The position numbers were made by a program, and so were the translations under genes. The notes beneath the pieces were generated by a model, which was not told the DNA's origin, did no database searches, and saw only the letters and a list, made by a program, of their open reading frames with translations. Source: Harriotta raleighana (lineage: Eukaryota). From it: 55,984 bases of DNA. Each line of letters opens with the position of its first letter. Positions within the stretch are counted from its first letter, which is position 1. The DNA is taken from assembly GCA_050575255.1 (NCBI GenBank), contig JBNZDD010013635.1, positions 2,767,670-2,823,653 on the forward strand, read 5' to 3'. Below are positions 1 through 42,359 of this stretch, piece after piece.

Positions 1-41
1 AGTTCAAAGTGCATGGCGAGCTGCCCCTCTATGGCATGATT
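1..41 (+). CDS. FARP2: FARP2 coding exon, 5'-truncated by the window (PH1: ..FKVHGELPLYGMI)
   Basis: Frame from base 3 reads FKVHGELPLYGMI, matching FARP-family PH1. GTGAGT donor at 42, phase 0. Confidence 0.88.
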
Positions 42-1650: not shown

Positions 1651-2277
1651 TACCAAGAGAAATGAACTAATGAACTGTGTGTTTGTGTGTATTCATTTTT
1701 GGAAATAGAAGAGATCTCCTCTGGGTACATTTTCCTCTACATGTGGACATGAACACTTGTATGTGCGCGTGTGTTTGTGTGCTCCCAACTCTGTTATTCT
1801 GCAGGAGGGCTTCAGATAGCTGTAAAAAAAAGGTTATTTAACTGGTAAGGTCTAATTTCCGGTATTATTGGTATCCGCCCAGGTTGTGAGATTTGAGGAT
1901 TGCAAATTCTGAAAGCCAACAAAGTCCAGAATAAATATGTGTTATTGCTGTATTAGTATTTACAAAGACAGACAAGCACCTCGTAACATTGACCTTTTCT
2001 GTTTGTTCTTGCGGAATAAGCAGACAACCATATAGTGAGTGAATGTAAATATTGAATGCAGTGGAGTACTTGATGTGTCTCCTCTTTATGTATTAAATAT
2101 GTTTGGAAAGCACTCCTGAGTGACACAGTGAAGATAATGCAAAGTAAAATAAATGGAGGGCAAATCAAATGTGAAACTTGAGCTTATTGGTACTGAGTTG
2201 ATTGTACTGAATGTTGCTCTTGGAGATGCTCACAATCATATGAACTGATTTTTTTTTCTTTTCTGGACCATTGCCAG

Positions 2278-2298
2278 CTGATTGTGCTGGAGCCCCCG
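2278..2298 (+). CDS. FARP2: Candidate FARP2 21-nt microexon (LIVLEPP), phase 0-0
   Basis: Long T/C tract, TTGCCAG acceptor, ctgattgtgctggagcccccg, GTGAGT donor. Frame-preserving in a phase-0 intron with no stop. Confidence 0.72.
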
Positions 2299-2856
2299 GT
2301 GAGTATGGAGCTCTGGGGGAGGTTCCTGTTAGAGGCAGTCTCAGCTTCTCACACTGACCCTTTAATCAGGCTTTATTGTAGGATAAACGTAGACTTAGAA
2401 GCTACTGTAGGTGTGTCGTGGATTTGCAGAGGAGTCCACGCTATTTCCGCCTCTCTACTCCGCCTTGCTTCTGCATTTGTCATTTTTTATTTTTCATTTA
2501 GCCTCATCGAATCAGTCTCCAGCATTGCCCTCTTGCTCGTTGCTGTGCCGAATTGGGCTTTACATTCACTGTCTTTCTCACAGTCCTGTTTAATTGTGTC
2601 CCTCTTCCACTAAACCCTGAACCAATGTCTCGTTTATTCAGCCTGTTATTAGCCCTGCTAAATCGTCCGCTATCTTTGATGTCCTGCTGATTTGAATTTT
2701 ACTGTTTGATCTGAAGTTCATTCTTTCACCTTGGGAACCTTAGTCCGAGTTGAAGTTGATCCCATGACTGGAACATGTTCATGACAGGCTAAATAAACAG
2801 TGACTGTTACCTGGATAAGAAATGATGTGGCTTGTCACTACTTCATCTTGTTGCAG

Positions 2857-2939
2857 GTTGAAGAGAGTGAAAATGAATGGTCAGTTCCGCATTGTTTCAC
2901 CATCTACTCTGCTCAGAAGACTATTGTTGTGGCAGCAAG
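2857..2939 (+). CDS. FARP2: FARP2 exon (VEESENEWSVPHCFTIYSAQKTIVVAA[S])
   Basis: ttgcag acceptor, gtaggt donor. Near-identical to recalled FARP2 VEESDNEWSVPHCFTIYAAQKTIVVAAS. Confidence 0.95.
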
Positions 2940-3473: not shown

Positions 3474-3592
3474 CTCCAAAGTAGAAATGGGAAAGTGGAT
3501 AGAAGACCTGAATATGGCCATTGATTTGGTGAAGAAGTCGAACGAGAAGGGAGATATGTTCCTGGAGACTAACATCTTCGATCGATCAAACA
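3474..3592 (+). CDS. FARP2: FARP2 exon (SKVEMGKWIEDLNMAIDLVKKSNEKGDMFLETNIFDRSN), PH1 C-terminal helix
   Basis: ttttgaag acceptor (phase 2), gtaagt donor (phase 1). Contains the PH helix tryptophan motif KWIEDL. Confidence 0.93.
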
Positions 3593-4735: not shown

Positions 4736-4899
4736 GGTCTTCAGATGAGGTGTCAGTGGAGCAGGAATCCGAAGACGACACTCACTCTTCCCGCAGCTCG
4801 TTGGACAAACAGACCCATCACCGTGCCAACACCACAATGCACGTGTGCTGGCATCGCAACACTAGTGTCTCCATGATGGACCACAGTGTTGCAGTGGAG
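4736..4899 (+). CDS. FARP2: FARP2 linker exon A (SSDEVSVEQESEDDTHSSRSSLDKQTHHRANTTMHVCWHRNTSVSMMDHSVAVE)
   Basis: cctcag acceptor, gtaccc donor, phase 1-0, 164 nt. HRANTTMHVCW is the FARP2-type motif. Confidence 0.95.
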
Positions 4900-5998: not shown

Positions 5999-6138
5999 TT
6001 TTCTATTCTCCTGCCACTTCCCCGGAGCTTCCTCCGCGCTACCTTCTAGGCCAGAGTCAGCGGCCTAACACCATCACCCACGTGTGCTGGTACCGCAGCC
6101 AAAATCTGTCGCTGGCTGATTACCTACGAATGATGGAG
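5999..6138 (+). CDS. FARP2: Candidate FARP2 alternative linker exon B (FYSPATSPELPPRYLLGQSQRPNTITHVCWYRSQNLSLADYLRMME), homologous to exon A
   Basis: Pyrimidine tract ~5925-5970, gctcag acceptor (second in-frame acceptor at 6049), gtaaac donor. Phase 1-0, 140 nt. RPNTITHVCWYR aligns with RANTTMHVCWHR. Confidence 0.82.
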
Positions 6139-7370: not shown

Positions 7371-7478
7371 AACCAGCTGTCTGGGTACCTGCTGAGGAAG
7401 TTCAAGAACAGCAATGGCTGGCAGAAACTCTGGGTTGTCTTCACCAACTTCTGCCTCTTCTTCTACAAGACCCACCAG
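7371..7478 (+). CDS. FARP2: FARP2 exon, PH2 start (NQLSGYLLRKFKNSNGWQKLWVVFTNFCLFFYKTHQ)
   Basis: aattag acceptor, gtacaa donor, 108 nt, phase 0-0. SGYLL and YKTHQ are FARP2-type residues. Confidence 0.96.
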
Positions 7479-7951: not shown

Positions 7952-8103
7952 GATGACTATCCCTTAGCTAGTCTCCCACTGTTAGGCTACATGGCCAGTA
8001 TGCCCTCTGTGAGCGACAGCATCCACAAAGATTATGTCTTCAAGCTCCAGTTCAAATCTCACGTCTACTTCTTCAGAGCTGAGAGTGAATATACATTCGA
8101 AAG
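7952..8103 (+). CDS. FARP2: FARP2 exon, PH2 (DDYPLASLPLLGY...HKDYVFKLQFKSHVYFFRAESEYTFE[R])
   Basis: ttgcag acceptor, gtaaga donor. Lies within ORF 7913..8107. Confidence 0.96.
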
Positions 8104-41000: not shown

Positions 41001-42359
41001 TTGATCAATGGATCAAACTGAGCAGAGATTTTTCTATGTTGACTTCAGGATGTAGACACTCTTTATTACCCTGTTCTAGGAACTTTAAAAACTGAATTTT
41101 ACAGGGGATAGTTTATATACTGTACTTACATTTTAACAAGTGAATATTGTCTGAAATGATGCAGTATATCAGAGAATGCAATACAACCAGAAGGCTGAAA
41201 TTGAATGCCTCTTACCCTTCATGGAACACTGACAACGATGGTTTCTGACTTCAGATTTAAATTGAACAATAATTTTTGTGCTCATTGTTCTCTGTTGTCT
41301 CCTCATGTGGAACACGGTCCGTTATATTTCAAACTATTAAATCTAAATGGAAGTCTCCTCTGCCTTTTACCCTTTGATCAGCAGATTGGGTCGGAATGTA
41401 CAATATCGCACTGTACCAGAAGATCTGAGATCAATGCGCTTGTTTCTCAGTAAATGCACAGCTCGTGGTGTGCGCACACTTTGAAAAGATCAGTCAGTGA
41501 CAGCACTGGTTGTCAGAGCTTTTTCTAAAGCAATAACGGGGGTGGAATTTCAATCTTTTGGAAAGGTTACTGAGGAGCTCCTCACCTTCATCCTCCCAAA
41601 CTATTATCTTTGTGCTCTGACAGACCGGAGTGCTGTGTAAGACAACTGTAAGTTGAATTCAGATAAATGCCTACACGCAATACATATATAAAAGGTTGTT
41701 TTACATCAGATCGGTCAATTTTAAGTTTTTTTAAACATATTTGACATTGGCCCAAATTCTATGAAATTGGTTGAAAATGACAGAATTGGAATGGAACCCT
41801 CCCCTTTCATTATTCAATGGTTCTTACTATTAAAATAAATCCTTACAACATCAACAACCACCACAGAAACTTCCATTTATATAAACTCCTTTTATCAGGA
41901 GTAGCATTGGAAGAATCAAATGCAAATGTAATGCAACAGGGTGGGCATGTGTTAAAGGCAAGTTTATTTCCACTCTGGTTGAAGAATATTGGATTGCTGA
42001 CTGGTGATCTTGTTTAAATGAAGGCCAGTCTTGTGCAGGGCAATGGCATGGTAACAAGGAACATTGCCACAGACTGGAAGGAAGTTCTTTCAATCGAATG
42101 AGTTCTTCATATCTGATACAGTACATCTGAGTGTCAATTTGGGGAGGGAAGCAGGATGGATGGACCTAATTGTGGATCACTTTCTACAGTAACTGTTCAA
42201 TGAATGTTCCCTTAGAATGCGTAAGCAAATAAATGTCTTCTACCCCTAATCAGGTTATGGATTTGATAGATTTAAATGCAGAAAATCCAAAGCCATTAGT
42301 TTTCTAAGTATATTCTGCACCTTATTTATAACTGTCTGAATTACCTTTTGTTTATTTAT

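Follow-up and report, generated by a model that had tools for sequence, protein, structure and literature searches.

The window analysed here, a stretch of 55,984 nucleotides from the chimaera Harriotta raleighana, carries the 3′ part of the FARP2 gene on its forward strand (Table 1), and the gene's FERM and DH exons lie upstream of the window. The PH1 exon that follows the 21-nt exon described below matches the FARP2 structure 4gzu with an E value of 7e-11 and the FARP1 structure 4h6y with an E value of 3e-5. A separate FARP1 locus sits on another contig of the genome. Among the matches listed, the best annotated protein for the DH exon is Callorhinchus milii FARP2 (96%). These matches identify the host, a FERM-FA-DH-PH-PH protein nearer to FARP2 than to FARP1 and distinct from the FARP1 locus, as FARP2. 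We also observed a 420-codon open frame on the same contig, some 19 kb before the window begins, in the interval that separates the FERM exons of FARP2 from its DH exons. It is rich in Ser, Asn, Asp and Glu and ends with a stop codon, and it could be a candidate long alternative last exon giving rise to a FERM-only isoform.

Table 1 Features of FARP2 in the window (positions count from the first letter of the window)
Feature	Position	Strand	Details and basis
Upstream PH1 exon, 3′ end	1..41	+	90 nt in full; donor GTGAGT at 42; peptide as in C. milii FARP2
Branch-point-like CTGAT	2245..2249	+	Sequence
Polypyrimidine tract	2249..2264	+	Sequence
TGC (UGC), putative SRRM3/4-type element	2272..2274	+	Motif context, bioRxiv 10.1101/2024.09.17.613571
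Cassette microexon, LIVLEPP	2278..2298	+	21 nt; C. milii X1 versus X2
5′ splice site GTGAGT	2299..2304	+	Sequence
Five TAG (UAG), putative Musashi-type elements	2330..2410	+	Proximal downstream intron
Downstream PH1 exon	2857..2939	+	83 nt; mouse downstream exon of equal length (rMATS rows)
PH1 C-terminal helix exon	3474..3592	+	119 nt
PH1-PH2 linker exon A, default form	4736..4899	+	164 nt
PH1-PH2 linker exon B	5999..6138	+	140 nt; phases as exon A
First PH2 exon	7371..7478	+	
Second PH2 exon	7952..8103	+	
Final coding exon through the stop codon	9065..9146	+	

Splice signals of the 21-nt exon

The exon preserves the reading frame and translates as LIVLEPP. Its phase is 0-0, as the preceding exon closes at 41 and the following one opens at 2857, each at a codon boundary. 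The acceptor is CAG, with its AG at 2276-2277, and is preceded by an AG-free stretch of 50 nt. The pyrimidine tract is 16 nt long, T-rich and set back from the acceptor AG, the TGC lies at position -6 relative to the exon, and GTGAGT follows the exon as the donor. The A of the CTGAT motif is at -30, and the motif resembles the branch-point consensus, which makes it a putative branch point. YCAY and TTTNTTT motifs are also found upstream of the exon. The original prediction had described a pyrimidine tract, a TGC just before the AG, 21 nt encoding LIVLEPP, a GTGAGT donor and phase 0-0, and all of these elements were recovered when the sequence was read again. With a length within 3-27 nt, canonical splice sites and a preserved frame, the exon falls within the definition of a microexon. 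The UGC between the tract and the AG, together with the strong donor, gives it a predicted SRRM3/4-type cis signature.

The whole window was scanned on both strands for the pattern YAG...GT[AG]AG with lengths of 3-51 nt, which yielded 283 loose candidates. At least 17 pyrimidines were counted in the upstream 25 nt for 19 of the 283 candidates, and 20 pyrimidines for two, of which only 2278-2298 combines a TGC with a length that is a multiple of 3. When the 141-nt region around the microexon was compared with the genome, its sole match was itself. Downstream of the microexon donor, from +7 to +126, there are five UAGs, compared with 0-3 at the other seven donors counted. In a post hoc motif test on overlapping intron windows of 120 nt, 85 of 7151 (1.2%) reached a count of five UAGs.

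Other splice-like sequences were noted during the scan. The intron that contains the microexon has two further candidates on the forward strand, 1805-1844 (40 nt) and 2024-2034 (11 nt), each with an upstream TGC; both break the frame, and the homologues showed no insert that corresponds to either. Far downstream of the FARP2 stop codon, positions 41624-41647 on the forward strand form a microexon-like sequence of 24 nt (or 13 nt) with a pyrimidine tract, a TGC and a GTAAG donor. The corresponding intron of FARP1 (1002 nt) contains no similar microexon: two of its 37 loose candidates reach 15 pyrimidines or more, and both are unlike the insert.

Conservation and alternative use

The nearest annotated relative contains the same insert. 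RefSeq isoform X1 of C. milii FARP2 (XP_042195122.1, 1058 aa) equals isoform X2 (1051 aa) with LIVLEPP added at the identical junction, and the two are otherwise the same. The seven-residue insert of X1 and the neighbouring PH1 exon peptides are identical to those of the window, and the two species are near but not identical, as the figure for the DH exon indicates; X1 and X2 both lack linker exon B. Of the 120 proteins listed by a search that was seeded with the DH exon, and was thus neutral with respect to the insert, 23 have seven extra residues at the junction, all of the form LIVL[DE]xP, while 60 skip the insert and 37 are without normal coverage of the junction. Isoforms with and without the insert are both annotated in C. 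milii (X1 and X2), Stegostoma, Acipenser, Denticeps and Cebus. Searches seeded with the insert and a cluster look-up extended this set to sharks, one skate, reedfish and gar, to numerous teleosts and to numerous mammals, the latter including lemur, New World monkeys and gibbon, and the mammalian peptide is LIVLDPP. Over 375 proteins, 167 include the insert, 157 skip it and 51 show neither pattern, a tally that overstates conservation because the pattern fixes the first and last residues of the insert and the seeds bias the rest. No bird, reptile, amphibian or human protein is named among the matches listed, which are word-based lists and not evidence of absence.

A search of the orthologous intron in sharks, teleosts and tetrapods had been proposed, and the insert is present in isoforms of shark, ray, ray-finned fish and mammal. 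The earlier claim of a real in-frame alternative microexon that adds seven residues is borne out by C. milii X1 and X2 and by the annotated isoforms of relatives. On these comparisons, 2278-2298 is a true cassette exon of FARP2, conserved from chimaeras to mammals. The nearly unchanged peptide from chimaeras to primates points to selection on the residues themselves, and the holocephalan case is consistent with the exon having arisen before cartilaginous and bony fishes diverged. One could argue that the sequence is a chance splice-like stretch of intron and no exon, given how many loose AG...GT candidates the window holds (283, as above), but the identical peptide and junction in C. milii X1 and sharks, and the near-identical peptide in mammals, leave this reading with a negligible probability. 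It was rejected on the conservation of the peptide at the same junction. We note that the exon is already known, being catalogued in three supplementary data sets and in the RefSeq annotation of the nearest relative. The gain is therefore modest, namely that a photoreceptor microexon with both of its cis-signatures is extended to a holocephalan.

Retinal inclusion of the published counterparts and its proposed regulation

A FARP2 exon of 21 nt is entered among the retina microexons (RetMICs) of mouse, chicken and zebrafish in Dataset S1 of Ciampi et al. 2022 (PMC9303857). The PSI values given there for retina, other and neural samples are 85.9, 0.7 and 1.4 in mouse (MmuEX1010172), 79.0, 1.0 and 2.2 in chicken (GgaEX0008153), and 96.9, 0.5 and 2.0 in zebrafish (DreEX0032101). 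In the ASCOT tables (PMC6952364), the mouse exon at chr1:93617298-93617318 has a PSI of 99 in rods and 2.5 in brain, and its values are at or close to 0 in motor neurons, in DRG, in Purkinje cells and in the hippocampal samples that have coverage. The same source gives a PSI of 20.5 in olfactory sensory neurons, so the mouse exon is not strictly restricted to photoreceptors. In a comparison of wild-type and Aipl1-/- retina (PMC4991804), the decrease did not reach significance (dPSI of 0.27, FDR of 0.75, on few reads), and an inclusion of 0.19-0.48 remained.

The exons that flank the mouse exon (mm10 coordinates as above) are 90 and 83 nt long, matching the exons of the window, and the ASCOT validation primers, when translated, give the peptides on both sides of the junction in 4gzu. 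On the basis of these flank lengths and primer peptides, we regard the mouse exon as the counterpart of the window exon. For chicken and zebrafish the link is made by gene and length only, with the addition for zebrafish of a position 5.4 kb before a 140-nt exon. A human FARP2 row is absent from all 18 supplement files of Ciampi et al. (PMC9303857), whereas isoforms of gibbon, New World monkeys and lemur carry the insert; the missing row may reflect either loss in human or low coverage.

The original prediction was of a neuron-specific insertion. Alternative use, conservation and dependence on Srrm3 (in zebrafish) stand, but pan-neural inclusion does not, given the neural PSI of 1.4-2.2 in the counterparts and the brain PSI of 2.5. 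A microexon under SRRM3/4 that is used throughout the neurons of the brain might still be proposed for the chimaera lineage, as the UGC, the set-back tract and the strong donor are common to neural and retina microexons and the annotation of C. milii X1 gives no supporting tissue. We consider such an exon very improbable, because the neural PSI is about 2 in the mouse, chicken and zebrafish tables (PMC9303857), because inclusion is at or near zero in the motor neuron, DRG, Purkinje and covered hippocampal samples of ASCOT (PMC6952364), and because the proposal requires chimaeras to have diverged in regulation from all three bony vertebrates. In the published tables the counterparts of all three species show the high retina and low other and neural inclusion of the RetMIC class, and not the high brain inclusion of the pan-neural class. 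By analogy with them, "neuron-specific" is likely better read as "photoreceptor-enriched" for the window exon. A test of inclusion in brain versus body would wrongly discard the exon, and retina is the apt tissue.

Two regulators bear on the published counterparts, and the second of them, Musashi, is absent from the original prediction. In the eyes of srrm3 mutant zebrafish, the PSI of the FARP2 microexon falls from 83 to 45, which is a partial loss, and the dPSI is -14 at 60 hpf, -27 at 72 hpf and -38 at 5 dpf (PMC9303857). In Musashi double-knockout mouse retina, inclusion is 0.22-0.41 versus 0.79-0.91 (from about 0.87 to 0.32, FDR 6e-7; Supplementary Data 12 of PMC9509328), where our reading of the table as "down in knockout", with the wild type as sample 1, follows the order given in the methods. 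The YCAY and TTTNTTT motifs upstream of the window exon are of the kind that has been linked to repression in other neurons (PMC9303857). The genome contains two SRRM_C (PF15230) loci, on contigs C13563 and C13545, which are likely SRRM3 and SRRM4. The motifs around 2278-2298 agree with a model in which SRRM3 and Musashi act together, and by analogy we infer that this chimaera regulates the exon as bony vertebrates do.

The balance between the two regulators could be different, with a photoreceptor exon driven mainly by Musashi and with the UGC and SRRM3 in a secondary or indirect role. Inclusion falls further in the Musashi study (by 0.55, PMC9509328) than in the srrm3 mutants (by 0.38, PMC9303857), although these data come from different species and the effect sizes are not comparable. 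The five UAGs at the microexon donor would suit such a role, as would the report that a UGC at this position is common but not strictly required for the response to SRRM4 (bioRxiv 10.1101/2024.09.17.613571). However, inclusion in srrm3 mutants is already reduced at 60-72 hpf, ahead of the reported degeneration; at 60 and 72 hpf, the source reports no degeneration (PMC9303857). In HEK293 cells, according to the same source, most retina microexons are unresponsive to MSI1 alone. A mainly Musashi-driven exon is, in our view, rather unlikely.

We consider it highly probable that 2278-2298 is an in-frame cassette exon in PH1 of FARP2 that is used mainly in retinal photoreceptors, under SRRM3 at the UGC and Musashi at the UAGs, and mostly skipped elsewhere. 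In this mechanism, inclusion of the exon in photoreceptors would be brought about by SRRM3 at the upstream UGC together with Musashi at the downstream UAGs, and outside photoreceptors, including most of the brain, the exon would be skipped.

The PH1 insert, the linker exons and known exons

On the structure 4gzu, the insertion site falls between chain residues 279 and 280. A Pfam PH-like match covers residues 760-859 of C. milii X1 and spans the insert at 812-818, in agreement with the earlier claim that the seven residues are added inside PH1. From the general topology of PH domains, the junction presumably lies at the start of a beta-strand, and not in the middle of a loop; the original prediction had placed it in a PH1 loop. 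AlphaFold2 models of the whole inclusion isoform (47 rows) and the whole skipping isoform (35 rows) have mean pLDDT values of 39.8 and 40.1, and the pLDDT in these models is below 50 across PH1 and below 30 at the insert junction. The hydrophobic LIVL would likely become the start of a PH1 strand, which is the weakest step of the proposed mechanism, and the acidic, proline-ended tail of the insert would make the next PH1 loop longer. In this way the insert may reshape the surface of the autoinhibited DH-PH-PH module without unfolding it.

The DH-PH-PH structures of FARP1 and FARP2 are autoinhibited by PH2, and the proteins have been suggested to be pseudo-GEFs (PMC6041286). The insert isoform of FARP2 would be a variant of a Rho-family GEF, and how this GEF is activated is an open question in the field. 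No main-text account of the exon's function was found in the literature covered, outside which most subscription journals fall, and farp2 and farp1 rows are absent from the supplements of PMC12626424 (12 files) and PMC12626420 (12 of 13 files). The insert may be regulated and conserved and yet make little or no difference that can be measured in FARP2 or in vision. Mice with deletions of conserved photoreceptor microexons in Ttc8, Cep290, Cc2d2a and Cacna2d4, three of them combined, had a normal ERG and normal retinal morphology (PMC9509328). However, the FARP2 exon is outside the set deleted in that study, and its peptide is nearly invariant from chimaeras to primates. A small or absent effect is a real possibility, though one that we lean against.

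Downstream of the microexon, linker exon B, which has a TGC before its AG, is a duplicate of the core of exon A. Both lengths are 2 mod 3, so that joining A and B would shift the frame. In the annotations of fishes and sharks, a protein almost always contains exon A or exon B alone; both are present in nine of the 375 proteins, and the three that were inspected join them irregularly. Judging from these proteins, exons A and B are likely mutually exclusive. Exon B was not found in the retrieved mammalian proteins, and a motif search found no exon-B-like copy in FARP1 of this genome. Exon B alone occurs in 35 of 174 inclusion forms and 10 of 157 skipping forms, but this co-occurrence with the microexon carries little weight, as the isoforms are related and computationally assembled and their retrieval was mostly seeded with the insert.

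A zebrafish exon of the same length, DreEX0032103, reaches a PSI of 98.7 in retina as against 2.5 in neural samples, and in the eyes of srrm3 mutants its PSI drops from 85 to 62 (PMC9303857). Like exon B, it is 140 nt long and lies downstream of the microexon, and a matching peptide occurs in zebrafish isoforms; exon B is likely its counterpart. It is tabulated as a long retina exon, whereas the status of exon B as a duplicate and alternative exon derives from the present analysis. We offer as a speculation, which we consider quite improbable, that photoreceptor FARP2 of cartilaginous and ray-finned fishes is made through coupled PH1-insert and linker-swap switches, which would loosen the PH2 lid on DH and turn a pseudo-GEF that is autoinhibited in its crystal structure into an active exchange factor, and that mammals kept the microexon only. 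If this were true, it would provide a natural isoform pair for studying how FARP2 becomes switched on.

The window exon can be compared with two known classes. With the FARP2 RetMICs of Ciampi et al. it shares the gene and the length of 21 nt, and it has the upstream UGC and downstream UAGs that are described for the RetMIC class. That study covered four bony vertebrates, whereas the copy in the window is holocephalan and is known here from sequence alone. The peptides also differ: the window has LIVLEPP, mammals have LIVLDPP and zebrafish has LIVLDAP. The pan-neural SRRM3/4 (nSR100) microexons resemble the window exon in a length below 28 nt, a preserved frame, a strong donor, a set-back tract and a UGC. 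Unlike these pan-neural microexons, the counterparts of the window exon are nearly absent in brain and neural samples and are also dependent on Musashi.
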